A stretch of DNA of 46,459 nucleotides from a virus. This document shows, one piece after another, positions 31,026 to 46,459 of this stretch. Under the pieces are notes generated by a model that searched no databases, was not told the DNA's origin, and saw only the letters and a program-made list of their open reading frames with translations. Every line of letters starts with the position of its first letter. The first letter of the stretch is position 1. Where the stretch lies: positions 1-46,459 of IMG/VR virus record IMGVR_UViG_3300018476_000003; one strand, given 5' to 3'. The translations under genes were made by a program, and so were the position numbers.

Positions 31026-32668
31026 GCGGCCTCCCGCGCGTCCAGCTCTTCCGCCGTGTAGCCCATCTCCTCTGGGCAGTAGCAGCCCATCGTGGCGCCG
31101 GGCCAGAGGATACGAGCGAGCTTGCTGCCCGCCGTCTTCATCAGCATATCCTGCGGCCGCTTCTCCCAATTGCCTGGCTTGCCGTAGTTGGCACCGCGGC
31201 AGAGCCCGGCCTGGCGCGCATCCTCGATGGTGTAGGTGTACTCGACCGGCTGCGGCTGGCGCTTGTGCTTGCCGACCCACGTCACCGAGGTGGCGCTCAT
31301 CTTCGTGGGCATCAGGTACTCGAAGTTGGCATCCCGCTCGCACAGCGCACGGATGAGGTCGGCCGAGGCCACTGGCTTGCCTTCGACGATGTGATGGTTG
31401 GCGAGCGCGGTGGTGATGCCGAGCCCCATCTCCTTGGCGCGCACCATGACCGTGAAGATTTGGGCCTCGCTCTTGTACTGCGAATAGAGCTGGCCCTTGT
31501 AGAGCCAGGTGCTCATCTGATAGGCGCTCGTCAGATCCATGGGCTGCAGCTCGCTCGTCACGAGCCCGTATTTGGTCTGCGTCACCTCGGGCTGAGCCTT
31601 CACCATCTGCGTGCGCGGCACGACCACCGAGGCGCGCGCCGGCTCGGCTGCCTTGTCGCCCGGGGCGTTGCTGACCGTGTCACTCTCGCCGTTCTGCTGA
31701 CGCTCGCGGTCGTACTGCTGCTCGAGCAGGTCTTCCCGGCTGGCCTGGTCGTTGGAAGCGCGGGCCTTCAGGCTCTCCTGATACAGGCGCCCCGCCTCTT
31801 CGAGCGCTGGGTCTTTGACTTCGTCCATGCTGTTCGCTTTCTCCTGCTCGGGTTCAGGCTCGCGCGCCACGAGCAGCGCGTCCGCATCGATGGGGACGTT
31901 GGTGTCTAGGGTCGCGAGCTTGATGCTCATCACCAGTGAGTTCCAGCCCTCGGCCAGCGACTTGACGGTCGCGCTCGGCTTGCTGCCCTGCAACTGCGCG
32001 GTGGTCGCCATGCCCTCGGCGAGCTTCTCGACCGTGAGGTACTTGTTGACCAGCTCGGAGGCTCGCTTGGGGCCGATGCCGGTGACGCCGGGGATGTTGT
32101 CGCTGCTGTCGCCGACCAGCCCCTGGTAGAAGGGCATCAGCTCCGGGGTGACGCCCCACTTGGCGACGACGCCGTCCACGTCCCGCACCACCCAGTCATT
32201 GGTGCCCACCGGCGGGATGTACTGCTTGACGTGCTTGTTCAGGCATTGGGCCGCGTCCTTGTCGACGCTGACGATGCGCACGTCATCGCACCAGACGCTG
32301 TATTTGGCAGCCAAGGTCGCGATGACGTCGTCCGCCTCGTAGCCCTCGCACCAGCCGACGTTGAAGCCGAGCCGCTGAATCTCCTTGTAGAGCCACGCGC
32401 GCTGCGCTCGCTCCTCGGGCTCGAGCACGGGGCGGGTCGCCTTGTAGTCGGGAGAGATAGCGAGACGGTGCGTGTAGGGCGGCGCATCGCGGCAGATGAT
32501 GACGTGCTCGACGCCTTGCTTCAGGTGCTCGAGGTCACGCAGGGTCGCCTTTGCCGCGCCGAGCGGCAGCCCATCGGTGATGGTGTGCCAGCGTTTTTTG
32601 AAGAGGTAGGCCAGGTCGACCAGCGCGATGGACTCGGGAGCGGGGAGCAGCGTTGCTTCTTGGGTCAT
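31022..32668 (-). CDS. Fusion protein: FEN/Pol I-type 5'-3' exonuclease plus Red-beta/RecT-like annealase
   Basis: N-terminal half: DLAYLFKKRWH, CRDAPPYTHRLAISPDYKATR, GYEADDVIATLA, VSVDKDAAQ, GDSSDNIPGVTGIGPKRASELV. C-terminal part: GNWEKRPQDMLMKTAGSKLARILWPGATMGCYCPEEMG, compare lambda Beta GPWQSHPKRMLRHKAMIQCARLAFGFAGIYDKDEA. The ATG at 32668 gives MTQEATLL. Confidence 0.75.
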   Translation of the reverse strand: MTQEATLLPAPESIALVDLAYLFKKRWHTITDGLPLGAAKATLRDLEHLKQGVEHVIICRDAPPYTHRLAISPDYKATRPVLEPEERAQRAWLYKEIQRLGFNVGWCEGYEADDVIATLAAKYSVWCDDVRIVSVDKDAAQCLNKHVKQYIPPVGTNDWVVRDVDGVVAKWGVTPELMPFYQGLVGDSSDNIPGVTGIGPKRASELVNKYLTVEKLAEGMATTAQLQGSKPSATVKSLAEGWNSLVMSIKLATLDTNVPIDADALLVAREPEPEQEKANSMDEVKDPALEEAGRLYQESLKARASNDQASREDLLEQQYDRERQQNGESDTVSNAPGDKAAEPARASVVVPRTQMVKAQPEVTQTKYGLVTSELQPMDLTSAYQMSTWLYKGQLYSQYKSEAQIFTVMVRAKEMGLGITTALANHHIVEGKPVASADLIRALCERDANFEYLMPTKMSATSVTWVGKHKRQPQPVEYTYTIEDARQAGLCRGANYGKPGNWEKRPQDMLMKTAGSKLARILWPGATMGCYCPEEMGYTAEELDAREAA

Positions 32669-33108
32669 GATGCAATCCTTTGTGCCGACCGAAGCCGGCA
32701 GTAGATGGGGTCGTGGGTGAGAGCGGCTTCGGCTTCCGCCTCGCTCAGTGTGTCGAAAGAGGCGCCGCCGACGTCGAACACCCACGGTGGGGCAGGAGGA
32801 ACGATGAAACCAACGAGGTCCAAATCCCCGTGGGGAAGAGCACCTGTTCTGGGCAGTGTACAATTGTATTGGTCAGTGTCAACGTTGGATGTCAGTTCAG
32901 TGTCCTGGACCGGCACGGCATTCGCCGCTTCGCGCTGTTTGCAGCCGCGATGGGAGAGCCGCGGCTGGTAGTTCAGCTGCCGCGAGTGGACCGTGCGCAG
33001 CGCCCCGCAATCGCACCGGCAGTACCAGCGCGGGGAGACGGCGTTGACGGCTGCGAGCACGGTGTCGAGCCCGAAGCGCCGTCCCGTCAGGTCTTTGCGG
33101 GCCCTCAT
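32665..33108 (-). CDS. Zinc-ribbon-like protein
   Basis: LTGRRFGLDTVLAAVNAVSPRWYCRCDCGALRTVHSRQL...HRGC. ATGA overlaps at both ends. Confidence 0.55.
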   Translation of the reverse strand: MRARKDLTGRRFGLDTVLAAVNAVSPRWYCRCDCGALRTVHSRQLNYQPRLSHRGCKQREAANAVPVQDTELTSNVDTDQYNCTLPRTGALPHGDLDLVGFIVPPAPPWVFDVGGASFDTLSEAEAEAALTHDPIYCRLRSAQRIAS

Positions 33109-35069: not shown

Positions 35070-35091
35070 CGACCTACGTTCTGGGTCAAAC
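35070..35091 (+). repeat. attP arm-type repeat candidate (right)
   Basis: CGACCTACGTTCTGGGTCAAAC. 16 of 18 positions match 34873-34890 and the GGGTCAAAC tail is shared. It overlaps the int stop codon. Confidence 0.5.
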
Positions 35092-36513
35092 GCCAGAAAA
35101 CGGGCTTCCCGGTCCACGCTGGGCAGCGTTGAGCAGCTGCCGCATCTGGTCGAGCAGGGCGGCAGCGTCCAGCGGCGGCGCGACAAACCCGGACACCCCC
35201 TGTCCGGGTTTAGACGCAGCGCTTGCGTCAAAACTAGTGGCCGCATCAGCCACCGGTTTCGCCGGTCGCGGCAAGGCGGCGTCGGGGGCCTGCACCAGGC
35301 GCGCCGTGTCGTAGCGGCTGGAGGTCGCCAGCTGCGTGTGCCCGGCCAGCGCCAGCACGTCGGCGGTGGGCACGCCGGCACCCTTGAGCGCCGTCACGAA
35401 GGCTCGGCGCAGGGAGTGGAAGTCCAGGGCCCGGGACTCGTCGGTGTCCGTCTGGAACGCGCAGTAGCGCTTGTCCGGGTTGGCAGGGTCCCAGCCCGGC
35501 AGCGGGCGCACGATGCCTGCCCCCCAAAAGGCACGCCGCAGCGCCTTGGTGAAGCTGGTGCCATTGCGGGCCTTGGCTGCCCCCACCTTGGTCGCCTTGC
35601 GCTGGTAGGTGCTCCCGTCCTTCCGGGTCACCGTGCCGCCCTTGGTGGTGCGCTCCACGGGGAAGACGGGGCCACTCTTGGGGCTGCCCTGCTTCTGCCA
35701 CCAGGCCTTGAAGTGGATCCACGCGCTCGGCGGCACGCCGTGCTCGACCATCTCGTACGACTTGACCCGGCGGGTGGTGACGAGCTTGCCCTCGGTATCC
35801 GTCTTGGGACGACGGACCTTCATGCGTCCCGTCTCCCAGTCGGTGACGTGCTCCCAGCGAGCCTCGAGCAAGTCGCTCGTGCGGTGCCCGGCCATGTCCC
35901 GGCAGAGCAGGCAGGCGATGTCGAGCTGCGTCTCGAAGCCCCTCTTCTCTCGGAAGCGCAGAAGCTCGGCGTCGCTCGGCACCTGGCGCAGCCGCCCGTC
36001 TTCTACGGCGTTGCTCGGCATGGCGAGGCTGCGGGCGGGGTTGTCCTCCCGGACGTTGCCGCGCACCAGCTTGGCCATCACCTGGCTCATGTCCGTGCGC
36101 ACGTAGGCGATGGTGCCCTTGAGCAGGCCGAGCGCCGGCATCCGATCCAAGACCGACGAGCAGTGCCCGGCATTGACCGCCCACGCTTCGATATGCCCGA
36201 TGATGGGGAACACGTACGTGCGCAGGCGCGTGCGCCGGTCGTGCGCCTTCTTCACCTCGGGGCGCGTCTTGGTCGGCATCGCGTCCACGATGCGCTCGGC
36301 CGCCTCTTTGAAAGTCTCGGTGCGGGCCTCCTTGGGTGGTTCGCCGGTGGCCAGCCAGCGCTCGTAACGCTGGCTGGCCACGTGTTTATCGTCCGTGCCG
36401 AGCGATAGCCAGCGCCCGCGCGCGCAGCCCTCGGGGTAGCCGCGCACGCGGCCCACCCAGGTCTTCATCGACTGGCGCCACCGCGGCGCTTCTCCCGTCA
36501 CTTTTCTCGGCAT
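35086..36513 (-). CDS. int: Tyrosine recombinase / phage integrase
   Basis: AGHRTSDL (Arg), HSLRRAF (H-x-x-R), LAGH and SSRY (Tyr) occur in the canonical order. Adjacent to the tRNA fragment. Confidence 0.9.
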   Translation of the reverse strand: MPRKVTGEAPRWRQSMKTWVGRVRGYPEGCARGRWLSLGTDDKHVASQRYERWLATGEPPKEARTETFKEAAERIVDAMPTKTRPEVKKAHDRRTRLRTYVFPIIGHIEAWAVNAGHCSSVLDRMPALGLLKGTIAYVRTDMSQVMAKLVRGNVREDNPARSLAMPSNAVEDGRLRQVPSDAELLRFREKRGFETQLDIACLLCRDMAGHRTSDLLEARWEHVTDWETGRMKVRRPKTDTEGKLVTTRRVKSYEMVEHGVPPSAWIHFKAWWQKQGSPKSGPVFPVERTTKGGTVTRKDGSTYQRKATKVGAAKARNGTSFTKALRRAFWGAGIVRPLPGWDPANPDKRYCAFQTDTDESRALDFHSLRRAFVTALKGAGVPTADVLALAGHTQLATSSRYDTARLVQAPDAALPRPAKPVADAATSFDASAASKPGQGVSGFVAPPLDAAALLDQMRQLLNAAQRGPGSPFSGV

Positions 36514-36543
36514 TGGTTTCTCTCTCTCTGACGAGCGGCTGGC

Positions 36544-37459: not shown

Positions 37460-37687
37460 ATGGATGCAGCACCAACGGCGGCAACGTGGTTGCCCAGTCG
37501 CGCGGACTTTGCCGCGCTCGAGCTTTCCGACGAAGATGAGCGCGACGTGAACGAGACGATGGCGCTCATCGTGGTCAGCGTGCGGGTGGGCAGCATCAGC
37601 CCGCACTTTGCCAACTGGCTCGTCAGCAAGCTGGCCGAAGAAAAAGCCGAGGCCTGCGCCCGGCGTATCGAGAGAGAGAGAGCATGA
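37460..37687 (+). CDS. Hypothetical protein
   Basis: ATG 37460 follows gggagcgggagca. It is the 3' part of ORF 37361..37687. Confidence 0.45.
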   Translation: MDAAPTAATWLPSRADFAALELSDEDERDVNETMALIVVSVRVGSISPHFANWLVSKLAEEKAEACARRIERERA

Positions 37688-38409
37688 AGAAAAAACAGAA
37701 GCGCCGCAGACACGACCCGCAAACCAAAGCCGCCGCCGTGGCGCGCGCCCAAGTCGTGGGCCTCACCCAGGCGGGTCGCGAGATCGGCTGCGCCGCGTCG
37801 GTGGTCGGACGCTGGGCGAAGAAGGCCGGCGTGACCGTGCCGCAGTTTCACTTCGCCCCGGGGCGAGGCCTGCGCCGCGTCGAGGAGCCCGAGGCCCCGG
37901 GGCTCGGCGCAGGCAACCCCGAGCCGCGACCGGTGACGGTCACGCCGCCCGCGAACAAATACCACCAATACGCCGCCGACACACCGGAGCACCGCGCCAT
38001 CGCGCTGCGCATCGTGCGCGGCGAGGCGCGCCAGGTCGTCGCCAATGAGATCGGGGTCAGCTCCACTCGCATCTCGCAAATCGCGCTCGCGCTCGGCCCT
38101 CGCGTGGCCGCCGAGCACGGCATCGACTGGACCCCCAAGTCCTATCCCCAGCGACGCCCCAAGGGCACCGGGAGCGGCACGCTCGTCAGCAGCGCCGGGC
38201 GCCCGCCCGAGCAGCTGGCCATGTACTCGCCGCCCACCACCCCGCTGCCGCGCGTGACGGCGCAGCCCGTGCGCGACGAGGCCGAGCAGGCCCGCGCCCA
38301 GGCGCAGAGCGAAATGCTCGAGACCGCGCTGCGCCAAGCGTTGCGCGAACGCGACGCCTTCAAGCTCGTCCACGAAGTCCTCATGAGAGAGAAAGACCCC
38401 AGCCGATGA
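37684..38409 (+). CDS. HTH DNA-binding protein (two HTH-like segments)
   Basis: ATGA overlap upstream. GLTQAGREIGCAASVVGRWAKKAG and ARQVVANEIGVSSTRISQIA. Confidence 0.55.
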   Translation: MKKKQKRRRHDPQTKAAAVARAQVVGLTQAGREIGCAASVVGRWAKKAGVTVPQFHFAPGRGLRRVEEPEAPGLGAGNPEPRPVTVTPPANKYHQYAADTPEHRAIALRIVRGEARQVVANEIGVSSTRISQIALALGPRVAAEHGIDWTPKSYPQRRPKGTGSGTLVSSAGRPPEQLAMYSPPTTPLPRVTAQPVRDEAEQARAQAQSEMLETALRQALRERDAFKLVHEVLMREKDPSR

Positions 38410-39656
38410 TGCCCGCCAAGCTGCCTCCCACGCCATACCCGTTTCAGGCCCGCGCTATCCCTCAGGTGCTCAAGAAGTTTGACGACGGAGTGAAGGCGCT
38501 CGTGCTCGTGAGCCCGACCGGCTCCGGTAAGACCGTGATGGCCGCACACGTCATGATGGCGCTCAACAGAGCAAACGAGCACCGTTTCGAGAAAGTGAAC
38601 TGCATCAGTCACCGCCTCAGCATCAACGAGCAGAACGAGCAATTGCTCTGCCCGACGTTTACGCCGCAGGAGTTCTACGACGGCAAGCCGGAGAAGTTTG
38701 GCACACCGGATCTGGTCATTTGGGAGGAGTGCCACCACTCGGAGGCGCCTACATTCAAGGCCGCGCGCAAGCGCTTCCCGAACGCGCTGATGCTCGGACT
38801 GACAGCGACTCCACAACGGTCCGACGGGCTCGCGCTCGACCTCTTCGAGGATATGGTGGTGGCTGCGCACAATTCCGAATTGCTGCTCAACAAGACCATC
38901 GCACCGTGTCAGGTGGACGTGCCTGAAAGCTTCTACGAAGACCAGACGCCAGACCTGGCGTTGGCCTATCTCGACTATCGAGAGGCGCACAATCGCGCGC
39001 TCATCTTCTGCCCGAGCATCGAAGAGGCGGAGAGCGTGGCCAAGCGCCTGAAGAAAGTCCAACCGTACCATTGCCAGCGAGGGCGCAAGACCAATGCAGC
39101 CGCGCTCACTGCCTTCAAAAACGGCACGTTGGATGCGCTCACTACGGTAGACGCGCTCGGCGAAGGAATTGACGTGCCACAAGCGGACTTGCTCGTGCTC
39201 GGCCGCCGTTGTGAAAACATCAGCACGTGGCTCCAATACTGCGGGCGCATCTTGCGGCGCTTCGAGGGCAAGAGAAAGTCGCGCGTGCTCGATTGCGTGG
39301 GCGCCAGCCTGCGTCATGGCTCCCCCACCGAGGACTTGGTCTACAGCATCACGGGCACCGGCATTCAACGGCGCGGCGGTCAGGGCCAGTCGTTCGAACG
39401 CGAGTACACGGGACGCGGAGAGCTGAAGCCCTACCGGGCGAAGTTCCGCACGCTCTTTGGGTGGCAGGACGCCACGCCCGAAGACAAGCGCCGACAGCTC
39501 GGGTGGCTACGCCAGCATGCGGCGACCCGTGGCTACACCGAAGACGTAGCGCTGGCGTGCTTCGAAGCGCTCTTCGGCGAAGCGCCGGCGGCTCAGAGCA
39601 GCGCACGCCGGCTGGCTCCGCCGAGCAGTCGCGTCACCAATGGGAAAGCGTCGTGA
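38406..39656 (+). CDS. SF2 DEAD/DEAH-type helicase
   Basis: SPTGSGKT (Walker A), VIWEECHH (DExH), LGLTATPQR, GEGIDVP, QYCGRILR. Confidence 0.85.
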   Translation: MMPAKLPPTPYPFQARAIPQVLKKFDDGVKALVLVSPTGSGKTVMAAHVMMALNRANEHRFEKVNCISHRLSINEQNEQLLCPTFTPQEFYDGKPEKFGTPDLVIWEECHHSEAPTFKAARKRFPNALMLGLTATPQRSDGLALDLFEDMVVAAHNSELLLNKTIAPCQVDVPESFYEDQTPDLALAYLDYREAHNRALIFCPSIEEAESVAKRLKKVQPYHCQRGRKTNAAALTAFKNGTLDALTTVDALGEGIDVPQADLLVLGRRCENISTWLQYCGRILRRFEGKRKSRVLDCVGASLRHGSPTEDLVYSITGTGIQRRGGQGQSFEREYTGRGELKPYRAKFRTLFGWQDATPEDKRRQLGWLRQHAATRGYTEDVALACFEALFGEAPAAQSSARRLAPPSSRVTNGKAS

Positions 39657-39865
39657 AGTTCCGAATCCAAATCATGGAGGTGGACCACGGCGCCACGCTC
39701 GACAGCCCCGAGGGATGCGACGGGTACCCGCACACCATCGAGCCCTGCTACGTCGCGGACCGGGGCTGCTTCGTGCTCTTTGTCGCTTGGCGGGTGACTC
39801 CGCCTCCCGTCCCGGACGCTCCCCCGCGGGCGCCCAAGGTACGGAAGGCGAAGCTCACCAAGTGA
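39653..39865 (+). CDS. Hypothetical 70-aa protein
   Basis: GTG 39653 forms a GTGA overlap with the helicase stop. It is the 3' part of ORF 39227..39865. Confidence 0.4.
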   Translation: MKFRIQIMEVDHGATLDSPEGCDGYPHTIEPCYVADRGCFVLFVAWRVTPPPVPDAPPRAPKVRKAKLTK

Positions 39866-39869
39866 GGGC

Positions 39870-40124
39870 TCACTCCCCCCGCACGGCCCACTGACCCGAG
39901 CTGACCATTTTGGGCACATCGCACAAGAGGCCCTTGGTCTCGAGCAGGCGCAGCGCCTCGAGGGCGGTCTGTCTGCTGACCCCGAGCCGGGTCCCCACCT
40001 CGACCGCATTGGGGGCTCGGCCTAGCTCCCGGGTCAGGACCCGCACCGCCTCGATATAATCGCTCTGGCGGGCCGTAGCGGGGCGCGGCGGGGCATACGG
40101 GGAGCGAGCGCGCTTAGCGGCCAT
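39870..40124 (-). CDS. Winged-helix DNA-binding protein (LexA-DBD/MarR-like), last gene of the early operon
   Basis: YIEAVRVLTRELGRAPNAVEVGTRLGVSRQTALEALRLLETKGLL. Confidence 0.6.
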   Translation of the reverse strand: MAAKRARSPYAPPRPATARQSDYIEAVRVLTRELGRAPNAVEVGTRLGVSRQTALEALRLLETKGLLCDVPKMVSSGQWAVRGE

Positions 40125-40344
40125 GGTTTGCCCCCTGGAGCCAGTCGTGCAGGCTCTCTAGCTCGTACGCCGTGACAGCGTCCAGAGGGTGGGCGGCATG
40201 CTCGGCCGAGTTGTCGGCGCTCTCGAGGCAGTAGGCGAGCAGGGCTCCACCGGTGAGGTCGCGCAGCTCGTCTAGCTCGCCAGCGGCCGCCGTCCAGTCG
40301 TACGCGGCGTGCAGGTGTTTCGGCAAGTGCGGGTCAGCAGCCAT
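40114..40344 (-). CDS. Hypothetical acidic protein
   Basis: ORF in track; overlaps both neighbours. Confidence 0.5.
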   Translation of the reverse strand: MAADPHLPKHLHAAYDWTAAAGELDELRDLTGGALLAYCLESADNSAEHAAHPLDAVTAYELESLHDWLQGANHGR

Positions 40345-40537
40345 CGGGGTCGACCTTTCGGGTGGTGCGCTTGGGCAGCTGCGTGCGGGTGACGCAGCGG
40401 CGCTCTTTGGACTCGGCCACGGCTTGGCGGTAGCTGGCCTTTAGGGCAGCGTCGGCCGTGTCGAGCGCGAGATACACGCGCGGCAAGCCGATGAGCCAGA
40501 GGATACCGAGCAGAATGAGGGTGAATAGGGCTTTCAT
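40334..40537 (-). CDS. Small membrane protein (one TM segment)
   Basis: ATG 40537 forms an ATGA overlap. Sequence MKALFTLILLGILWLIGLPRVYLAL. Confidence 0.5.
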   Translation of the reverse strand: MKALFTLILLGILWLIGLPRVYLALDTADAALKASYRQAVAESKERRCVTRTQLPKRTTRKVDPDGC

Positions 40538-41070
40538 GCCGGCACCGCTTCCGGCTCGAGCCGATCGCACAGGGCCGCCAGTTCTGCCACTACCTCAGCC
40601 GGAACGCGCTTGACCAGCCAGCGGCTACCGAATTTGTAGCCACGGTCCACCAGCAGATCGGCGGCTCCCAGTGCAGTGCACGCGGAGAGATACCAGTCGC
40701 CACGGTCGAGCGGTTCGGCCGCGTCCAAGATTGCTTTCTGCGCGGCCGTGCCGGCCTGCATATCGTTCAAATGCCACTGGCGCCAGAGTACGCACAGCCG
40801 CTGTAGGTCCGTGCGGGTCTGCCCTCCGCATGATGCGGCGTAGCGCTCTAGCAGGTCGTGGCACTGGCCGAAGGAGTCTTCGCGCCACTTGTGGCGCTGG
40901 GTCGGCCGCTCCCAACTGCCCACCGATACCGATAGGCGGTTATAGGGCTCGTCGATAGGTTGCAGGTCAGTGTCCATGGAGCCGGGTTGCGCCTCTTGGC
41001 GCGTAATCTCCACATAGACTTCAATGCGCCTGGTCAGTGACTGGAAGCGTAGCGTGCGCTTGATGCTCAT
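40534..41070 (-). CDS. Hypothetical protein (WHLNDMQAGT motif)
   Basis: ATG 41070 is abutted by a (GA)9-type tract. 3' part of ORF 40534..41109. Confidence 0.6.
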   Translation of the reverse strand: MSIKRTLRFQSLTRRIEVYVEITRQEAQPGSMDTDLQPIDEPYNRLSVSVGSWERPTQRHKWREDSFGQCHDLLERYAASCGGQTRTDLQRLCVLWRQWHLNDMQAGTAAQKAILDAAEPLDRGDWYLSACTALGAADLLVDRGYKFGSRWLVKRVPAEVVAELAALCDRLEPEAVPA

Positions 41071-41147
41071 TCTCTCTCTCTCTCTCTCTTTTCCGGGCTG
41101 AATGCCCACGCGGAGCCGTCACCCGTGTGACGGCGCCGGATGGGAGG
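41071..41147 (-). promoter_or_regulatory. Intercistronic spacer 1: GC hairpin + GCATTCAGCCCGG box + (GA)n leader
   Basis: Hairpin at 41115-41134 (gCCGTCAC-ccgt-GTGACGGc). A 19-nt (TC)n tract at 41071-41089 on the plus strand abuts the ATG. Confidence 0.6.
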
Positions 41148-41345
41148 TCAGCCAATGCGGCGCAAGTAGGCTTGCGCTAGTTCGTGCTGCCCTTGGTGGA
41201 TACGCAGGCGCGCGCACAGGCGCCGCATTTCCACCCGGGCCTCCCGTAGCCAGTCGCGGCTCACCTTGGTGCGACCCGCTTTGCCGGCGGCAATCTCTCG
41301 ACGCAGGCACAGAATCTCGCCCTTCAAGCGCTCAATCTCAGTCAC
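41148..41345 (-). CDS. Hypothetical 65-aa coiled-coil protein
   Basis: GTG 41345 forms a GTGA overlap with the stop of the TM micro-gene. Sequence VTEIERLKGEILCLRREIAAGK.... Confidence 0.45.
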   Translation of the reverse strand: MTEIERLKGEILCLRREIAAGKAGRTKVSRDWLREARVEMRRLCARLRIHQGQHELAQAYLRRIG

Positions 41346-41494
41346 AGGCACCCCACGAAATGCAAGAGCCACCAGCAGACGAGCAGGCCGATAGCGGCCG
41401 GCAGTAGCTCGAGCAGAGCGCCTAGAACCATCATGGCCAGGCAGAGCGCGGCGAAGCCGAGCACGCACAGAACGAGCAGGGCGAGCAGGCTCAT
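41342..41494 (-). CDS. 50-aa two-TM membrane protein (not in ORF track)
   Basis: MSLLALLVLCVLGFAALCLAMMVLGALLELLPAAIGLLVCWWLLHFVGCL. ATGA overlap upstream and GTGA overlap downstream. Confidence 0.45.
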   Translation of the reverse strand: MSLLALLVLCVLGFAALCLAMMVLGALLELLPAAIGLLVCWWLLHFVGCL

Positions 41495-41766
41495 TGGGGC
41501 ACCCGCTTTCCGGCGTGCACCGGTCGCGGCTCACCAGAAGAGCCAGCCTCCCAAACAGGGGCCACGCCAAAGTGAGCGCACATATGCAGCTGTAGCGGGG
41601 TCCAGTTGTCCGGGTAAATGTCCCAGGCGCTCTCACGTTGCGCGCGAGCGATGGTCAGCAATTGCTCCGCGGAGTATTGCTGACCGATGGTCTCGCTGCA
41701 TGCGTTGAATAGCTGCACCGCGTAGCGGAGCAGCTCAATGCCGGTCAATTCTGGTTTCTGGCTCAT
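41491..41766 (-). CDS. Hypothetical protein
   Basis: ORF in track; the ATG is preceded by agaaagagagagagaagc. Confidence 0.6.
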   Translation of the reverse strand: MSQKPELTGIELLRYAVQLFNACSETIGQQYSAEQLLTIARAQRESAWDIYPDNWTPLQLHMCAHFGVAPVWEAGSSGEPRPVHAGKRVPQ

Positions 41767-41842
41767 GCTTCTCTCTCTCTTTCTGCCGAGCTGAATGCTC
41801 GCCGGGCTCTAGTAGCAGGGCTGCTAGAGCCAAGCGGACGGG
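41767..41842 (-). promoter_or_regulatory. Intercistronic spacer 2: hairpin + GCATTCAGCTCGG box + (GA)n
   Basis: Inverted repeat GGCTCTAG...CTAGAGCC at 41805-41831. (TC)n at 41769-41781. Confidence 0.6.
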
Positions 41843-42097
41843 TCAGCCTGCGTCGTCTTCCGGGCATGGCCCGTCTTGCGGCGTTATCTCGACATAGTCC
41901 GCGCATGCGGCGTGGAACTGATAGCGACCCGTCCGGCGCAGCGCTTCCCTTGCTCGACGCAAGACGGCTGGTGGCAGGTCAAAAAAGGGTGACAAGGCCG
42001 CATCGATCGCCTCTTCTTTCGTTTCGGCAAAGCCGGGCCCGCCGTCATACAAGCAACCGACCGTGCCAGAACCGTAGCTCCAATGCGTTGCAGTCAT
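41843..42097 (-). CDS. Hypothetical protein
   Basis: ORF in track; the ATG is abutted by gaaggaagagagaga. Confidence 0.6.
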   Translation of the reverse strand: MTATHWSYGSGTVGCLYDGGPGFAETKEEAIDAALSPFFDLPPAVLRRAREALRRTGRYQFHAACADYVEITPQDGPCPEDDAG

Positions 42098-42169
42098 TCT
42101 CTCTCTTCCTTCTCGGCTGATGTGGCCGCACGGGCCTGTTGCACGGATGCAACTGGCCCGAACGGGACA
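42098..42169 (-). promoter_or_regulatory. Intercistronic spacer 3: hairpin + CATCAGCCGAG box + (GA)n
   Basis: Hairpin at 42131-42160: CGGGCCtGTTGCA-cgga-TGCAACtGGCCCG. Confidence 0.6.
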
Positions 42170-42688
42170 TTAGGCGTTGTACTGGTTGCGCCAAGCCTCG
42201 AAATTGGAGTCCACCTTGACGGACTTGCGTTGCAGGTCGCGACGGTTGGCAAAGTAGACACCGTTTGCAGCGAGCATGCGCGCGATGCGCTCTAACGTGC
42301 CGTAGCTGGTGCCCTGCACGTGTAGGTCATAGTCGACCGACACGACACGCGAGCCGCGAAAGCTTTCCACGTCGCAGCCTTGGTAGGCGCCTGTGCAGCT
42401 GACAGATAGCGACCGGTCGCAGCCGTCCCAGCACGTCTCATGGTGAGAGCACGATTGACGGTCAATGAACGCTAGCGCCTCTCGGATGCTGGGAAACTCG
42501 AAAGCACCCGCTTGCGCGCGCCTGATGTTTCGCTGAACGTCGCGCTTGCGCCCGTTGCTGAACGAGCGGCGCCGCTCGGTTGCGGGGTCAATGTAGCCGT
42601 TATCGGCGCTATCCCCGTCTTGGGAGCTTTCTTCCGTGATGAGCGTATAGGTGACGCTCACCTTGTGCAGCTTGCTGGTTGCAGACAT
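42170..42688 (-). CDS. Hypothetical protein
   Basis: ORF in track; 172 aa; several Cys/His (SCSHHETCWDGCD). Confidence 0.6.
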   Translation of the reverse strand: MSATSKLHKVSVTYTLITEESSQDGDSADNGYIDPATERRRSFSNGRKRDVQRNIRRAQAGAFEFPSIREALAFIDRQSCSHHETCWDGCDRSLSVSCTGAYQGCDVESFRGSRVVSVDYDLHVQGTSYGTLERIARMLAANGVYFANRRDLQRKSVKVDSNFEAWRNQYNA

Positions 42689-42758
42689 TGGGTCTCTCTC
42701 TTTCTGGCGCTTGGCGCACCCTGCTACGCGCTAGACGGCTAGCGCGTAGTGAGGCGGG
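42689..42758 (-). promoter_or_regulatory. Intercistronic spacer 4: perfect 11-bp hairpin + (GA)n
   Basis: CTACGCGCTAG-acgg-CTAGCGCGTAG at 42724-42749. (TC)n at 42693-42703. Confidence 0.65.
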
Positions 42759-42986
42759 TCAAGGCAGCGGACGGCGGAAGCGGCCTAGGTGGCCCGGGTC
42801 CGCCGTGAAGCAATCCGCGCCAGCTGACAACGGGTCGATCCGCACCTTGCCGTTCTTGTAGACCTTGAATGGTCGGATGCGGGTCGGCGCATAGTCCAGC
42901 GGAGCATGGTAGAAAAGCGGAGCATTGCTCGCGACGTATGCGAGCAAGTCAGACCATTGCGCGAAACCGGTAAAGCCGTGTTGCAT
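42759..42986 (-). CDS. Hypothetical protein
   Basis: ORF in track. Confidence 0.55.
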   Translation of the reverse strand: MQHGFTGFAQWSDLLAYVASNAPLFYHAPLDYAPTRIRPFKVYKNGKVRIDPLSAGADCFTADPGHLGRFRRPLP

Positions 42987-43062
42987 GATGCGTGTCTCTC
43001 TCTCGGGTCAAGCGGACCCGCCGTGCCCTGCTAGCCGTGGCTGGCAGGGCAGAGCGGAGCGC
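42987..43062 (-). promoter_or_regulatory. Intercistronic spacer 5: two hairpins + (GA)n
   Basis: CGGGTC-aagcg-GACCCG at 43004-43020. GCCCTGCTAGCC...GGCTGGCAGGGC at 43025-43050. (TC)n at 42994-43004. Confidence 0.6.
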
Positions 43063-43455
43063 TTACCGTACGCGCCCATCGTCAACGCCGTTGGGTCCGG
43101 CGAATAGATACACCTCACCGTAAGCGTGAGCTACGCGGGTTAGGTACTCTCCGCGGTCCACGTCGTAGCCCCGATCGGTCTCCCAATAGCCCACCCCGTG
43201 GCCGTTGCGCGTAAACCAGAAGTCACGCCCCGCTTGCTCGTCGCCCGCGTCGCACCACTGGAGCACGCTTTCGACCTGACACTGGAACGCCGCGCATTCG
43301 TGCGCCATTCTCGCCAGCGTATCGTCGTCAATGTCGTCAATGCCGTAGTTGCGATCCAGCGGGTAACCGCCGCTCGGGGTCGTCTCATCAGTGGTGCTGA
43401 ACAGCGCGGCTTCCACGTAGCCGCGTAGAAACTTGCTGATTGCTGGACGGGTCAT
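43063..43455 (-). CDS. Hypothetical protein (GYVEAALFS...FWFTRNGHGVGYWE family)
   Basis: ORF in track. I recall this motif family from phage/plasmid accessory regions; its function is unknown. Confidence 0.6.
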   Translation of the reverse strand: MTRPAISKFLRGYVEAALFSTTDETTPSGGYPLDRNYGIDDIDDDTLARMAHECAAFQCQVESVLQWCDAGDEQAGRDFWFTRNGHGVGYWETDRGYDVDRGEYLTRVAHAYGEVYLFAGPNGVDDGRVR

Positions 43456-43556
43456 GCTCTCTCTCGTTTCCGGGCTCTCTCGAGCCGTTGTAGTGGCCGC
43501 TGTGGCTCACCTTTCCGCGCAGTACCGTTGCCAGTGCTGCGCGGGATAGGCGGGTC
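43456..43556 (-). promoter_or_regulatory. Intercistronic spacer 6: hairpin + CCCGGAAAC box + (GA)n
   Basis: Hairpin at 43515-43544: CCGCGCAGtAC-cgttgcca-GTgCTGCGCGG. (TC)n at 43457-43465. Confidence 0.6.
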
Positions 43557-43763
43557 TCAGGGGTAGTTGGTGACAGACGACATCTCGTCTTGAGCGTCCC
43601 GATCGCCGTATGCGTCGGCGGTAGCGCTCACAACGTCAATGCCGCCTGGGTACAGGAACGCCGTGATGCGGTCGCATACGGCCTGGCTTGCCTCAGCCAG
43701 CGTCACGCCGTGCCAGTCGTGGTCCACCTCGAGGGTCACGGTCACTTGAACGACGTGCTTCAC
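43557..43763 (-). CDS. Hypothetical 68-aa protein
   Basis: GTG 43763 forms a GTGA overlap with the upstream stop. 3' part of ORF 43557..43832. Confidence 0.45.
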   Translation of the reverse strand: MKHVVQVTVTLEVDHDWHGVTLAEASQAVCDRITAFLYPGGIDVVSATADAYGDRDAQDEMSSVTNYP

Positions 43764-43939
43764 TTGCCACCCCGCACAACCAGGGTCGGGCACGTAATGA
43801 CGGCATCGCCATTGATGTAGACGATGCGGCAACGTTGCGGCGCTGCGGGAGCAAGCTCGGCAGCGTCAGCGGCGGTAATGCCGAGCACGGCGCCAGCCAC
43901 GAATGCTGCGAGGGTGATAGCGATGATTCGAGCGGTCAT
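43760..43939 (-). CDS. 59-aa secreted/signal-peptide protein (not in ORF track)
   Basis: MTARIIAITLAAFVAGAVLGITAADAAELAPAAPQRCRIVYINGDAVITCPTLVVRGGK. Signal-peptide-like N-terminus and 2 Cys. Confidence 0.45.
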   Translation of the reverse strand: MTARIIAITLAAFVAGAVLGITAADAAELAPAAPQRCRIVYINGDAVITCPTLVVRGGK

Positions 43940-44027
43940 GGGTTCTCGTTTCCGGCCCTGTAGGGGCGTGTTGCAGGCTGAGTGCCTGGTAGGGGCCGCG
44001 AGCCGTCTCGCGAGCCCTGCCAGAAGC
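43940..44027 (-). promoter_or_regulatory. Intercistronic spacer 7: hairpin + GCCGGAAACGAGA box
   Basis: CGCGAG-ccgt-CTCGCG at 43998-44013. The leader is ggccggaaacgagaaccc and has no long (GA)n. Confidence 0.5.
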
Positions 44028-44276
44028 TCAGTCGACCAGACCGACTAGGTTGCCGTCCCGCCAGCACACGCCGTCCGCAACCAGGCTGCGCACGCTAGCG
44101 GCCAGCCCTGCACAAGAGCCGGTGCGGGCCAACGCAACCGACAGGTCACCCATCGTGAGCGGCGAGTCAGCGGCCACCAGCAGGTCATACACGCGCATCT
44201 CAGTACGGGAGAGCGTTGGTTCGGTCGTGCGTTCGGTCGGTTGGGCGTCGGCCAGGGAGCGGAATGTGAGGGTCAT
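44028..44276 (-). CDS. Winged-helix (MarR-like) protein, first gene of the early minus-strand operon
   Basis: ATG 44276 gives MTLTFRSL.... The segment LSRTEMRVYDLLVAADSPLTMGDLSVALA is wHTH-like. Confidence 0.5.
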   Translation of the reverse strand: MTLTFRSLADAQPTERTTEPTLSRTEMRVYDLLVAADSPLTMGDLSVALARTGSCAGLAASVRSLVADGVCWRDGNLVGLVD

Positions 44277-44368
44277 GTTGCGTCCTGTGGGAGTGGGGTG
44301 AGCCTGCTGTGAGCAGGGTGTCAGGGGGGCCGCCGTTCGTTGCGTCGCCCCGTCCACACCAAGATAGC

Positions 44369-44381
44369 CCTGTCAGACAGG
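44369..44381. promoter_or_regulatory. 13-bp perfect palindrome CCTGTCAGACAGG (operator candidate)
   Basis: Read directly. Lies 93-105 nt upstream of ATG 44276 on the minus strand. Shares the GTC-N-GAC centre with 37031-37043. Confidence 0.4.
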
Positions 44382-44446
44382 TTGTGCAAGCCACAGGGGG
44401 CATTTTGCTCGCCGTTTTGGGACACTGCGCGTTTGCGCCTCTACTC

Positions 44447-44542
44447 CGCGCGTGCAGCGTGTGCGCGCGTCACGTGTGCGCGTGTGCAGTGCGCGCGAGT
44501 GCAGGCCTGCGCGTGCGTGCGCGTGCGCGCGTACCCGGGTAC
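44447..44542. repeat. Alternating purine-pyrimidine (GC/GT) tract ending in the palindrome GTACCCGGGTAC
   Basis: Runs such as gcgcgtgcgtgcgcgtgcgcgcgtac (26 nt of strict Pu/Py alternation). GTGCAG/GTGCGCGCG motifs recur. The 12-bp palindrome is at 44531-44542. Confidence 0.8.
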
Positions 44543-44595
44543 CCCCCCGGGCCAGGATCGGGGGACGCGGTCGCCCCACCTGCCCCGACCGACAC

Positions 44596-44619
44596 GAAAA
44601 TTCTGAACCCAAATCCCCC
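44596..44619 (+). promoter_or_regulatory. Upstream element copy 1 (GAAAATTCTGAaCcCAAAtCCCCC)
   Basis: Begins 41 nt upstream of ATG 44637. A near-identical element lies 41 nt upstream of ATG 44954. Confidence 0.55.
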
Positions 44620-44636
44620 TGTGGTACAGCGCGAGC

Positions 44637-44891
44637 ATGACCCCCGGGGACCTCATCGCTCAGCGCCGTGCCGAGCTGGGCGAAAGCTTGGCTATTTTCA
44701 GCAAACGACTCGGTGTGGACCGGTCATTTCTCTGCGACGTGGAGCACGGAAAGCGCCGTGTCGCCCTCAAACACGCCCAGCGCTGGGCAGAGCCTCTCGG
44801 CATCGAGCCTGCCGCACTCGCCAAGCTCATCTTCCAAGAGCTGCTCGACGAGGCGGGCCTGGATTTGGTCGTCCAGGTGAGGCGCCGCTGA
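44637..44891 (+). CDS. XRE/Cro-CI-type HTH protein
   Basis: LIAQRRAELGESLAIFSKRLGVDRSFLCDVEHGKRRV is a typical HTH_3 pattern. Confidence 0.7.
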   Translation: MTPGDLIAQRRAELGESLAIFSKRLGVDRSFLCDVEHGKRRVALKHAQRWAEPLGIEPAALAKLIFQELLDEAGLDLVVQVRRR

Positions 44892-44912
44892 CCCACCTCA
44901 GCCGACAGACAT

Positions 44913-44935
44913 GAAAATTCTGACTCAAACCCCCA
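44913..44935 (+). promoter_or_regulatory. Upstream element copy 2 (GAAAATTCTGActCAAAcCCCCA)
   Basis: Begins 41 nt upstream of ATG 44954. Confidence 0.55.
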
Positions 44936-44953
44936 TCTCAGCTACACGCGGGC

Positions 44954-45298
44954 ATGCCCAATGACTACGTCGAGCCCCTGTATCTCGAGATTGGCGCCCT
45001 CGTCCGCAGCGCTCGCGAGGCTCTGGGCCTCACGCAGACCGACGTGGGGCAGAAGCTCGTGCCACCCGTCACGCGCGCCGCCATGGCCAACATGGAGTGC
45101 GGCAACCAGCGCATCATGCTGCACGTCCTGGTGCAGATTTCGGTCATTCTCGGCGTTCCGCTCACTGAACTGTTGCCGGGGATGCCGCAAAAGCGGGCGA
45201 CCTCCTACGAGAGCCGCAGAGTCCGCTCTCTCGAGCGGCAAAACGCCGCTCTACAGCGCACCATCTCCAGGGCCCGCGCCGAGCTAGAAAAAACCTGA
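44954..45298 (+). CDS. XRE/Cro-CI-type HTH protein with C-terminal coiled coil
   Basis: IGALVRSAREALGLTQTDVGQKL...MANMECGNQRIMLHVLVQISVILGVPLTELL. Confidence 0.7.
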   Translation: MPNDYVEPLYLEIGALVRSAREALGLTQTDVGQKLVPPVTRAAMANMECGNQRIMLHVLVQISVILGVPLTELLPGMPQKRATSYESRRVRSLERQNAALQRTISRARAELEKT

Positions 45299-45300
45299 CC

Positions 45301-45504
45301 CTACTTCGGAGGCAAAGCCTTGGCCGTGTAGTGCACGAAGCCAAATTCGAACGCCATGCGCTCCAGGTTCTCGCCGCGCACCCCACCGCGCCACAAATCC
45401 CGCCGCATCAGCTCCACCGCCGCCTGCATCTCCGCATCCAGCGCTGAATCTGCATCCCATCGGAGGGGTTTGTACCCCTTCATGGCGTCGACCTTGCCCC
45501 TCAT
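45301..45504 (-). CDS. Hypothetical protein
   Basis: ORF in track; convergent with 44954..45298. Confidence 0.5.
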   Translation of the reverse strand: MRGKVDAMKGYKPLRWDADSALDAEMQAAVELMRRDLWRGGVRGENLERMAFEFGFVHYTAKALPPK

Positions 45505-45514
45505 CGCTGAATTT

Positions 45515-45676
45515 TCACAAACTCCGCCCCGCTTCGGCCTCTTCGTCGCGCCACTCGCTCAGTAGGCCGTATTTCTCGACGAAAGCGCAGAATTTGGCGA
45601 TCCATTCCTGTCGCCGCGCCAGGCGCAGCTGCCGCCTGCGTCGTTTTTCGCGAGCTTTCACCAGCTCGCCACCCAT
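45515..45676 (-). CDS. Hypothetical 53-aa basic protein
   Basis: The internal ATG of ORF 45515..45805 gives MGGELVKAREKRRRRQLRLARRQEW.... The start is tentative. Confidence 0.35.
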   Translation of the reverse strand: MGGELVKAREKRRRRQLRLARRQEWIAKFCAFVEKYGLLSEWRDEEAEAGRSL

Positions 45677-45752
45677 TGCCCGAACTTCCACAGCAGGAAC
45701 GTCGCGCAGAGCGTGAATATCGACCAGAAGATGCCGTCGCCGGTGGTCACTG

Positions 45753-46067
45753 TCAGACCTCGCCCCAACACAGGTCAAAAGGAGGGTGCCCGAGGTCGCC
45801 TCCACAGTTGGGGCACTCTGGCTTCGGCTTGCTCATCGGGCCATCGCTGAACAGGCACGCCTTGCCGTCCACGCACACCAGATGCGTGTCCCAGTCGATG
45901 CGCTTGTCGAAGCTGCCGTACTTCTCGACGGTGACGACGCTGCTCGGCCTGTACGCGACCCAGTGCTTCTCGAGGAAGGCGATGAGCGCGGCCCAGTCAG
46001 CAATCTCGCGCACGTGCTCCATCGACTCGTCGATGGTCATGAATCCGGTGGCAGGACGGATTTTCAT
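45753..46067 (-). CDS. Hypothetical protein with C-terminal CPNCGG zinc-ribbon-like motif
   Basis: ATG 46067 follows GGAGGGAG and forms an ATGA overlap with the upstream stop. 3' part of ORF 45753..46421. Confidence 0.6.
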   Translation of the reverse strand: MKIRPATGFMTIDESMEHVREIADWAALIAFLEKHWVAYRPSSVVTVEKYGSFDKRIDWDTHLVCVDGKACLFSDGPMSKPKPECPNCGGDLGHPPFDLCWGEV

Positions 46068-46453
46068 GGCTTCTCCCTCCGGGCCAGCTCGGCAATCGCT
46101 ATTTCCGCCGTGCTGGCAGAAGAGAAAGCCACGCCGCTGGGGTGCGTCGAGCGGAACTTGGCGACGCGGCACGCCTCCAGCACCGCCCGGTCCTTCGCAT
46201 CCACGATGCTGAGCCCCTGGGTGGCGAGTAGCTCCGCGAACGCCTTGCACGAGATGACGAACACGTGAGCGGTGCGCCGGTGCTTGAACTGCCACCCCAC
46301 GTGGGTGTCTTCGCCGGTCAGCACGCGGCTCAGCTCCCACCCCTCCGGCAGCTCCGGCGCTGCAGTCCTCTCTCTCGGGCAAGGCACGAGCTTGCTGTGG
46401 CTGTACCCGTCGTGATGGCACATCTCGGGGGCTGCGGGTGGCGTACGGCTCAT
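46064..46453 (-). CDS. Hypothetical protein (its start lies inside the terminal repeat)
   Basis: ORF in track. Its ATG corresponds to nt 100-102 of the left repeat copy and overlaps the stop of 99..944 as ATGA. Confidence 0.55.
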   Translation of the reverse strand: MSRTPPAAPEMCHHDGYSHSKLVPCPRERTAAPELPEGWELSRVLTGEDTHVGWQFKHRRTAHVFVISCKAFAELLATQGLSIVDAKDRAVLEACRVAKFRSTHPSGVAFSSASTAEIAIAELARREKP

Positions 46454-46459
46454 CGCAGC
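46352..46459. repeat. Terminal direct repeat, right copy (identical to 1..108)
   Basis: Same 108 nt as the contig start. It implies a circular or terminally redundant unit of 46,351 bp. Confidence 0.95.

Follow-up and report, generated by a model that had tools for sequence, protein, structure and literature searches.

The early operon of the uncultured temperate phage represented by IMG/VR virus record IMGVR_UViG_3300018476_000003 carries seven intergenic spacers that are built as copies of one structured RNA module. In this module, the end of the upstream gene is complementary to a downstream box, an irregular hairpin lies between them, and a purine-rich leader connects the folded part to the next start codon. 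The window, by which we mean the whole stretch of DNA analysed, comprises positions 1 to 46,459 of that record (46,459 nucleotides, nt). The operon occupies 39870..44276 of its minus strand, where 14 small co-oriented open reading frames (ORFs) are arranged in eight blocks with the seven spacers between them. Genes within a block overlap or abut, and spacers are found only between blocks. A first-pass annotation, made from the sequence alone, had drawn attention to these gaps, and all seven lie between minus-strand ORFs as it described, at 41071–41147, 41767–41842, 42098–42169, 42689–42758, 42987–43062, 43456–43556 and 43940–44027 (77, 76, 72, 70, 76, 101 and 88 nt, respectively).

The ~74-nt module is present in three to seven copies in each locus examined, with three to six copies per locus in at least 12 related metagenomic phages. 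It represents an uncatalogued structured RNA family, supported by covariation and without a match in Rfam, in a widespread clade of uncultured ~47-kb phages. It shows a high-G+C phage packing unrelated ORFan cassettes into one operon, each cassette combining a fully folded, stop-anchored spacer with a structure-free purine start site. The structure, covariation and conservation of the module, its strand and geometry, its open leader and the mosaic gene content around it are set out below as they were observed.

The main hairpin is a conserved structure of the coding strand

A strong GC-rich hairpin had been claimed for each gap, and a stem-loop (hairpin 1, HP1) was indeed recovered in all seven, starting 2–12 nt after the stop codon and leaving the purine tract unpaired. 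The gaps fold with minimum free energies of -27.7 to -42.7 kcal/mol, corresponding to z-scores of -1.2 to -4.3 against shuffles, and six of the seven hairpins fall within the 45 most stable 44-nt windows of the genome. The reported lack of a U tract after the hairpins also held for all seven, and a terminator scan found no site in any gap. A promoter consensus scan of 39800–46459 returned 0 promoter-like sites.

The dimensions of the module are tightly distributed. Among 54 distinct spacers from the window and its relatives, the distance from the stop codon to the apical loop has an interquartile range (IQR) of 24–26 nt, the apical loop consists of 4 nt in 41, and the whole spacer has a median length of 74 nt (IQR 72–77). 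The 5′ strand of HP1 accordingly measures ~24–26 nt, roughly two helical turns, and the stem contains two symmetric 1x1 mismatches. From the start of the 3′ arm to the end of a second, smaller hairpin (HP2), the median distance is 30 nt, and the 3′ end of HP2 lies 12–23 nt (median 17) from the start codon.

The stem sequences differ between spacers, with the pairing retained. When all 36 spacers were aligned with plain MAFFT, RNAalifold found no structure, as their stems have diverged too far for a sequence-based alignment; orthologous and class-wise alignments (A3, A5 and A6) were used in its place. In A3, a MAFFT alignment of the orthologous spacers downstream of gene A (encoding a 172-aa early protein) from 10 loci, 93.8% of the HP1 cells are paired and four pairs have changed on both sides. 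The covariation score of HP1 in this alignment was 0.281 as compared to 0.127 in shuffles, a value reached by none of 500, and when the partner was slid by 1–3 columns as a control, the pairing fell to 21–50%. In the class II alignment (A6, including the window spacers at 42689 and 43456), unguided MAFFT followed by RNAalifold yielded 15 pairs, eight of them compensatory.

On the coding strand, 25 of 41 tetraloops are GNRA or UNCG, as compared to 0 of 41 on the antisense strand (binomial p=3e-23). The strand was assigned from the loop identity and the orientation relative to the genes, as fold energy was not discriminating. The tetraloop bias, together with the fixed orientation to the stop and start codons, argues that the structure acts as a sense RNA. 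A protein-bound DNA site is disfavoured, since such a site would keep its sequence and the stems do not.

Two further regularities of HP1 were observed. The non-Watson–Crick positions are one-sided in 38 spacers from the window and L004–L016, with 47 5′U.G3′ versus six 5′G.U3′ and 34 5′C.A3′ versus six 5′A.C3′ positions. A C.A mismatch located 2–4 bp below the loop is conserved (CcAG-loop-CUaG).

The box belongs to two mutually exclusive helices

The first-pass annotation had described a free CAGCYCGG-like box behind each hairpin. This box is not free, as it is the 3′ strand of two alternative helices, P0 and HP2, both of which covary. It makes up the 3′ arm and part of the loop of HP2, whose stem has 4–6 bp. 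In test spacers that had partly been chosen by a hairpin finder, HP2 was detected in 85% as compared to 22% of shuffles, with a covariation score of 0.375 against 0.216 (0/500). The matched arms comprise GGGC/GCCC, GAGC/GCUC, CGGC/GCCG, GGCC/GGCC, AGGC/GCCU and GGGU/ACCC, and the loop is semi-conserved as AYUYCA.

In the other helix, P0, the box is complementary to the last sense codon and the stop codon of the upstream gene. The observed variants are GGCUGA/UCAGCC, AGCUGA/UCAGCU, UAAGCG/CGCUUG, UAACG/CGUUA, UAAUC/GAUUA and UGAUA/UAUCA. A stop region and its cognate box scored -6.81 kcal/mol versus -5.65 kcal/mol for non-cognate combinations (0/5000 permutations), the spacers being selected in the same way as for HP2.

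P0 and the outer stem of HP1 exclude HP2 because they share nucleotides with it. With these mutually exclusive folds, nearly all bases of the spacer except the leader are paired in one conformation or the other. In this model, a ribosome positioned on the stop codon would have to open P0 and the outer stem, thereby freeing the HP2 strand. The leader of the window phage is predicted to be open in both conformations.

The purine leader is an interchangeable, unstructured start-site element

The motif GAGAGAGA occurs 22 times in the window (11 distinct sites without the duplicated end), as compared to 1.66 times in shuffles, none of 100 of which reached 22, and nine of the 11 distinct sites lie 0–13 nt upstream of a start codon. 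The possibility that the (GA)n tracts are coding had been named at the outset as one that would overturn their interpretation as leaders. With gene starts based on public calls and on ORF logic, an in-frame stop codon precedes the ATG in six of the seven gaps, so the tract is not coding there. For gene 40534–41070, an in-frame GTG at 41109 is possible but lies within a hairpin arm, and both the public call and the L015 orthologue use the ATG. In L017, two paralogous early genes (~2400–2410 and ~3640–3650, minus strand) both start with GTG AAC GAG AGA GAG ACC, and the GA tract is coding; GA runs near starts can be read either way.

The tract had been ascribed to all seven spacers and, in a similar form, to the integrase leader. 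Its presence was confirmed in general, although the seventh leader (43940–43953) is only weakly GA-like. It is not confined to the spacers, as three of the nine start-proximal sites lie outside the operon; the hairpin modules themselves are confined to the early operon. The integrase leader, (GA)5-AAACCA at 36514..36530 on the minus strand, directly precedes the ATG of gene 35086–36513 and has no hairpin module. On the plus strand, the (GA)6-type leader GAGAGAGAGAGAGC (37668..37683) lies directly upstream of the ATG of gene 37684–38409, within the 3′ end of gene 37460–37687, and the leader GAGAGAGAAAGA (38383..38405) lies 13 nt upstream of the helicase gene 38406–39656, within the 3′ end of gene 37684–38409. 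No hairpin accompanies the tracts before genes 37684 and 38406. Since (GA)n precedes genes that have no hairpin, the two elements are separable, and the placement of (GA)n outside the operon resembles that of a ribosome-binding element. Elsewhere in the window, TCTCTCTC at 12814–12821, on the sense strand of the late gene 12629–12970, creates an antisense GAGAGAGA with no associated ORF.

The late genes had been said to use ordinary Shine–Dalgarno (SD) boxes, and this was confirmed: GGAG, GAGG or AGGA is located within 18 nt upstream of 18 of the 31 plus-strand late genes, and of only one GA-leader gene. On the other hand, the argument that the purine tracts stand too close to the ATG for a classical SD interaction fails, because the tracts extend from -1 back to between -9 and -24 and thereby span the customary -5 to -12 interval. 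Where the window has (GA)n, sister phages carry GGAG or AAGGA boxes of the ordinary kind. Assuming a host 16S tail that ends in ...CCUCCUUUCU-3′, the (GA)n duplexes reach -8.4 to -9.8 kcal/mol, like those of the late-gene SDs; AGAAAG or AGAGAG pairs with CUUUCU, and GAG with CUC. (GA)n may accordingly be an SD-like ribosome-binding leader that pairs with the 16S tail. In the nine GA-leader genes, the start region is predicted to be unpaired with a probability of 0.62, as compared to 0.40 in the 51 others (p=5e-4). A purine-only tract cannot pair with itself, which would keep the start site open in a genome of 65% G+C.

The leader differs between related genomes. It is of the GGAGUUACC type in L005, L013, L014 and L016, of the GAAGGAAACCAGGAAC type in L017 (whose TerL is 90% identical), of the AAGGAUUGA type in L027, and (GA)4 or longer in L010, L011 and the window. 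As sister genomes place their own SD-like types at this position, (GA)n is one interchangeable form of the leader. When leaders of non-orthologous spacers are compared, those from a single genome resemble each other more closely (local score 7.72) than those from different genomes (5.38; Mann–Whitney p=6e-14), a pattern suggestive of gene conversion among the repeated copies or of a reader particular to each genome.

The module is conserved in relatives, and the genes around it are exchanged

Gene A has 23 metagenomic homologues with 47–74% identity. The relatives used throughout are the contigs of these homologues together with TerL-related IMG/VR contigs. Conservation in relatives had been named as a check on the module, and the spacers are conserved: small co-oriented gene blocks are separated by 69–82-nt gaps with the same layout throughout, consisting of stop codon, long hairpin, small hairpin, purine box and ATG.

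The covariance-model search, which had also been suggested, was performed with R1, a model built from A3 alone. R1 finds paralogous spacers, and only within early operons. In the window, it has sense matches to the non-orthologous spacers at 41075, 42984, 43953 and 41768, and apart from antisense echoes of two spacer hairpins, nothing elsewhere in the window scored better than E=0.7. It also matches non-orthologous spacers in relatives. When IMG/VR was scanned for the outer-stem pattern of the spacer that follows gene A, 16 contigs were retrieved, including those of L017 and L019; of the 14 others, R1 confirmed only two. A search of Rfam gave no match at the gathering score in the whole window and none at E<=1 in 40000–46459. 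The shared design and its conservation bear out the view that the spacers form a single-plan family specific to the early and lysogeny region.

A family map of the early proteins in nine loci revealed a conserved skeleton, in which gene A is central and a winged-helix gene comes last, with varied ORFans between the spacers. The hairpins after gene A are orthologous in ten loci even though the next gene differs. One leader can precede unrelated genes, and homologous genes can carry different leaders. Because leaders and genes combine variably, the exchange points are in or near the spacers and not at one fixed nucleotide. Homologous exchange through similar linkers seems to fit this pattern better than site-specific recombination.

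Three of the relatives contain non-coding regions of 560–810 nt upstream of spacer-bearing genes (L005 4624–5234, L006 4040–4599 and L008 4385–5197). These regions carry short direct repeats, such as GCGCAGTG and CACTGAACA(N)CTGAGGAGCTGCA.

Comparison with known intergenic elements

The statement that no described system shows this combination was too strong, as the PeSL cassettes of T4-type phages and the SAS/ESAS elements of mycobacteriophages share the layout of stop codon, inverted repeat, SD and ATG. PeSL cassettes are defined by a sigma-70 early promoter, and their stem-loop terminates transcription (Arbiol et al. 2010, PMC2839356; PMC4122927). Like the module, they are ~70–100-nt repeats that extend from the stop codon to the next ATG between small early ORFans and contain a stem-loop and an SD, and the genes flanking them are gained, lost or replaced between relatives, as in our nine-locus map; in both cases, the repeats appear to promote modular shuffling. 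However, the strong sigma-70-like promoter of PeSL has no counterpart in the module. A promoter inside each spacer was rejected as a candidate, given that there is neither a consensus nor, with ~17 nt from the structure to the ATG, room for one. The stems of the module are also much longer, stop-anchored and variable in sequence, with RNA-type tetraloops. Each spacer has a hairpin, not followed by a U tract.

In Cluster K mycobacteriophages, SAS is a 13-bp conserved sequence that includes the ribosome-binding site and lies 3–8 bp upstream of many starts; in about half of the cases it follows ESAS, an imperfect inverted repeat of 17 bp with a short variable spacer (Pope et al. 2011, PMC3203893). 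The SAS consensus differs by subcluster, and a translational role is suspected (PMC3203893). The likeness lies in a conserved start-associated leader after an inverted repeat, with a consensus specific to the subcluster in one case and to the genome in the other. The leaders of the module, (GA)n, GGAGUUACC and the others, are unrelated in sequence to the SAS consensus. The ESAS repeat is conserved in sequence and possibly a protein-binding DNA, whereas the module retains only the pairing and ties its hairpin to the stop codon of the preceding gene; neither the hosts nor the lineages of the phages are related. As far as the sequence features allow, the module appears to belong to neither PeSL nor SAS/ESAS, lacking the defining features of each.

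Among processed or stabilising hairpins, the RNase III hairpin of the T7 early region stays attached to the 3′ end of the message that precedes it, which is thereby stabilised. T7 RNase III sites resemble the module in being irregular intercistronic hairpins of about two turns, with internal mismatches and no U tract, in a polycistronic early mRNA. However, they have an asymmetric internal loop, in contrast to the two symmetric 1x1 mismatches, the alternative 3′ hairpin and the stop-codon pairing of the module. The REP elements of E. coli operons and the puf hairpins of Rhodobacter are GC-rich stem-loops after cistrons that block 3′ exonucleases and set differential stability. They share with the module the position after a cistron within an operon, but their length is not stereotyped, they do not follow each gene block, and they have no fixed leader.

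The module can be described as a phage intergenic regulatory cassette or intercistronic hairpin that resembles several known kinds and matches none. Its unusual traits are a stop codon that pairs with a box able to form a second hairpin, and a leader that is homogenised within each genome and differs between genomes.

A proposed role in insulation and stabilisation

Our preferred interpretation, to which we give about an even chance, is that the module insulates and stabilises the RNA between cistrons, leaves the ribosome-binding site open and, in addition, acts as a linker for cassette shuffling. A role at the RNA level, in processing, stabilisation or as a translational leader, had been among the first proposals and fits the evidence best; the proposed DNA-level role as H-DNA did not hold up. 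From the anatomy of the spacers, we infer RNA processing or stabilisation, translational insulation and SD pairing. The last codon and stop codon would pair with the box as P0 and close the irregular HP1, usually capped by a GNRA or UNCG tetraloop, and the 3′ strand at the base of HP1 could refold as HP2. The ~17-nt unstructured purine-rich leader would be the ribosome-binding site. The hairpin would lock up the ribosome-free RNA between the cistrons. By acting as an exonuclease barrier or as an RNase III-type site, HP1 may shield or set the 3′ end of the cistron before it, and it may block the carry-over of ribosomes, such that each block would be translated independently. In published library data, translational coupling is weaker where secondary structure directly follows a stop codon (PMC12548453). 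(GA)n would be a local, slippage-prone version of the SD-like leader, and the similarity of the modules would provide homology linkers for the exchange of gene blocks.

Several observations weigh against the insulator and stabiliser reading. With an E. coli-type tail ending in ...CCUCCUUA-3′, (GA)n reaches only -5.3 kcal/mol. The antisense fold is on average 1.3 kcal/mol more stable, the sense fold being the more stable one in only 14 of 38 spacers. Many spacers are orthologous, so the permutation p-values for HP2 and P0 overstate independence. Furthermore, the fixed two-turn length, the C.A mismatch near the apex and the exclusive folds are not required by a simple barrier or insulator, and these extra features point to something more specific. 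Should the fixed two-turn geometry stem from RNase III or from ribosome sensing, operon design would gain a compact portable part, and the control of early genes would become accessible in phages that have so far resisted cultivation.

One such specific role, which we regard as rather unlikely, is that of a termination sensor: the ribosome would melt P0 and allow HP2 to form, leading to hand-over to the leader or to a decision on cutting the hairpin, with a phage-specific factor reading the leader. Were this true, the fate of each cassette would be coupled to the translation of the one before it, and the module would represent a new class of repeated riboregulator in bacterial viruses. A low probability also attaches to a related scheme, in which the spacer is either a termination-sensing switch or a site of ribosome hand-over across the hairpin base to the purine landing pad, in a shunt-like reinitiation over the 74-nt gap; the hairpin base would bring the stop codon beside the leader, and the terminating ribosome or its 30S subunit would be passed across. 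It draws on the fact that P0 and HP2 each covary yet are mutually exclusive, on the strict placement of the helix base 12–23 nt from the start codon, and on P0 and the outer HP1 5′ strand lying within ~12 nt of the stop codon, which fits the downstream footprint of a terminating ribosome. In the GGAGUUACC subclade, moreover, the stop-adjacent flank can pair with the SD and leader. However, with the leader of the window predicted to be open in both folds, no gating is visible, and we know of no bacterial precedent for a shunt across a hairpin, which counts against hand-over. Structure after a stop codon is, in addition, tied to less coupling and not more (PMC12548453). Control could instead be exerted during transcription, with the hairpins as terminators or pause sites that restrict read-through in the early operon until a phage antiterminator overcomes them, and HP2 as a boxB-like protein-binding hairpin. 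This is distinctly unlikely, even though the hairpins resemble terminators in directly following stop codons and in moving together with the gene before them, the comparable PeSL stem-loops terminate transcription (PMC2839356), and the HP2 loop is semi-conserved: intrinsic terminators were ruled out by the lack of a U tract after any hairpin and the empty terminator scan, the HP2 loop covaries with the stop codon and is not constant, and no antiterminator homologue was detected among the early proteins.

The mosaic gene content raises the question of a role primarily in DNA, as PeSL-like homology patches or attC-like folded sites for cassette swapping, to which the RNA features would be secondary; for this we see a slim chance. 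Gene blocks are mosaic among relatives where the spacers persist, the greater likeness of leaders within a genome suggests gene conversion between spacers, and the phage encodes an exonuclease-RecT fusion and a tyrosine integrase. As in attC arrays, same-orientation promoterless ORFs are each followed by a folded site in a cassette-like arrangement, and the sequence of that site varies around a conserved geometry with conserved mismatch positions. Nevertheless, the GNRA/UNCG bias of the coding strand is an RNA signature, and the R''/R' core sites of attC (GTTRRRY/RYYYAAC) are not evident in the spacers as read, no dedicated pattern search having been run. The mismatches of the module are 1x1 and not bulged, extrahelical bases. 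With these symmetric mismatches, RNA-type loops, an integrase without an NCBIfam match and breakpoints that vary in position, attC sites were rejected. It is also quite improbable that the genome-specific leader is an operator through which an RNA-binding regulator or a nuclease of the phage jointly silences the early and lysogeny genes. The same leader does stand before ~9 genes of these two sets, spread over three transcription units, and none of the late genes has it; in each related genome, non-orthologous spacers share a leader type particular to that genome. T4 provides precedents in RegA, which represses at start sites, and RegB, which cuts GGAG in early SDs (PMC3014915). Nonetheless, nearly all of the early genes are ORFans and no candidate for an RNA-binding protein or RNase was found among them, and gene conversion between repeated spacers is a simpler account of the house style of each genome. 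Finally, the (GA)n/(TC)n tracts had been suggested to be H-DNA-forming mirror repeats, which is scarcely credible as their general role. The tract at 41071–41091, with ~20 nt of pure GA, is the only one longer than ~15 nt; the others have 7–13 nt, sister phages carry non-mirror sequences at these positions, and the tracts are always on the coding strand, abutting start codons.

Anatomy of the individual spacers

All seven spacer modules are read on the minus strand. Module 1 (class I, 41071..41147) has HP1 at 41105–41144 (CCCAUcCGGcGCCGUCAC-acgg-GUGACGGCuCCGcGUGGG) and HP2 at 41094–41108 (UGGGC-auuca-GCCCG). Its purine leader (41071–41094) abuts the ATG of gene 40534–41070, and its P0 pairs GGCUGA, the last codon and stop codon at 41148–41153, with UCAGCC. 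R1 matches this module at E=3.5e-5. Module 2 (class I, 41767..41842) contains HP1 at 41800–41836, HP2 at 41787–41801 (CGAGC-auuca-GCUCG) and the leader AGAAAGAGAGAGAGAAG at 41768–41784, with GGCUGA pairing with UCAGCU in P0; it has orthologues in L004 and L019. Module 3 (class I, 42098..42169) follows gene A and is composed of HP1 at 42126–42165, HP2 at 42114–42128 (CGGC-cacauca-GCCG) and the leader GAGAAGGAAGAGAGAGA at 42098–42114. Module 4 (class II, 42689..42758) forms HP1 at 42717–42756, with the apex CUACGCGCUAG-ccgu-CUAGCGCGUAG, and HP2 at 42706–42720, and its leader AGAAAGAGAGAGA (42693–42705) ends 4 nt from the ATG.

Module 5 (class I, 42987..43062) has HP1 at 43017–43058 and HP2 at 43004–43020 (CGGGUC-cgcuu-GACCCG); UAAGCG pairs with CGCUUG in P0, the leader GAGAGAGAGA (42995–43004) lies 8 nt from the ATG, and R1 matches at E=0.002. 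The remaining two are long forms. In module 6 (class II, 43456..43556), HP1 at 43515–43544 (CCGCGCAGcACUG-gcaa-CGGUaCUGCGCGG) is followed by extra small hairpins, including one at 43473–43486, and by the leader GAGAGAGAG at 43457–43465. Module 7 (class I, 43940..44027) is composed of HP1 at ~43985–44024, HP2 at ~43974–43988 (CAGGC-acuca-GCCUG), an extra small hairpin and then the weak leader GGAAACGAGAACCC (43940–43953), and is matched by R1 at E=0.28. It lies upstream of a 59-aa ORF (43760–43939, MTARIIAI...) that is absent from the public calls; in L017, this ORF is conserved and preceded by a spacer module. Its product is probably a small membrane or secreted peptide.

Genome and early-operon context

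The genome is a circle of 46,351 bp with ~65% G+C, and bases 1–108 of the window are repeated at 46352–46459. The ENA metagenome contig of the phage (ERZ27251438, k141_6480944), of which the window is a rotated copy, has a 141-bp terminal overlap, indicating a complete circular or terminally redundant genome. The window had no match by DNA similarity among 50,697 GenBank phages, and no tRNA was found in it. The plus strand encodes podovirus-like structural genes, and the genome also encodes the tyrosine integrase, the helicase, the exonuclease-RecT fusion and helix-turn-helix (HTH) repressor-like genes. For the integrase, no NCBIfam model matched at E<=0.01. TerL has more than 470 metagenomic relatives in public metagenomes, many of them on 46–48-kb contigs. 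Its closest cultured relatives are 30–33% identical and belong to phages of Rhizobium, Pelagibacter and Roseobacter and to HMO-2011; these distant relatives give a hint, no stronger than that, of an alphaproteobacterial host. A prophage copy was sought in GTDB genomes with the gene-A profile and with TerL, and none was found.

The early-operon genes are nearly all ORFans. Ten early proteins had no Pfam match, and in PHROGs the same ten proteins yielded one family of unknown function, for a 130-aa protein, and one marginal hit. The last gene of the operon (39870–40124) encodes a winged-helix protein of LexA-N/MarR-like type.

Among the plus-strand genes, the TerL ORF (3354–4607) is called with 417 aa, as compared to ~500 aa in its homologues, and its true start is probably farther upstream. 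The 613-aa protein encoded at 31022–32863 consists of a 5′-3′ exonuclease, with N-terminal and SAM-fold domains, fused to a C-terminal RecT-like domain, an unusual single-chain recombination module.

The region upstream of the operon contains several further elements. The sequence TTGCAC-N17-TATCTT at 44361–44389 on the minus strand, ~85 nt upstream of the first early gene, matches at 7/12 positions, below the scan threshold, and was the sole sigma-70-like candidate for an early promoter spotted by eye. A block at 44457–44552, situated between the early operon and the divergent HTH genes, contains four copies of an alternating purine/pyrimidine repeat (GCGTGTGCGCGCGT-like) together with GGGGGTACCCGG, and L006, L008 and L017 have counterparts at the same place; this block may serve as an operator array or as an origin, or it may be prone to form Z-DNA. 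A 52-nt duplicate with 73% identity (44566–44617 and 44883–44934; core GACAYGAAAATTCTGA) is located upstream of both plus-strand HTH genes and is also present in L017; it is probably a shared promoter or operator.

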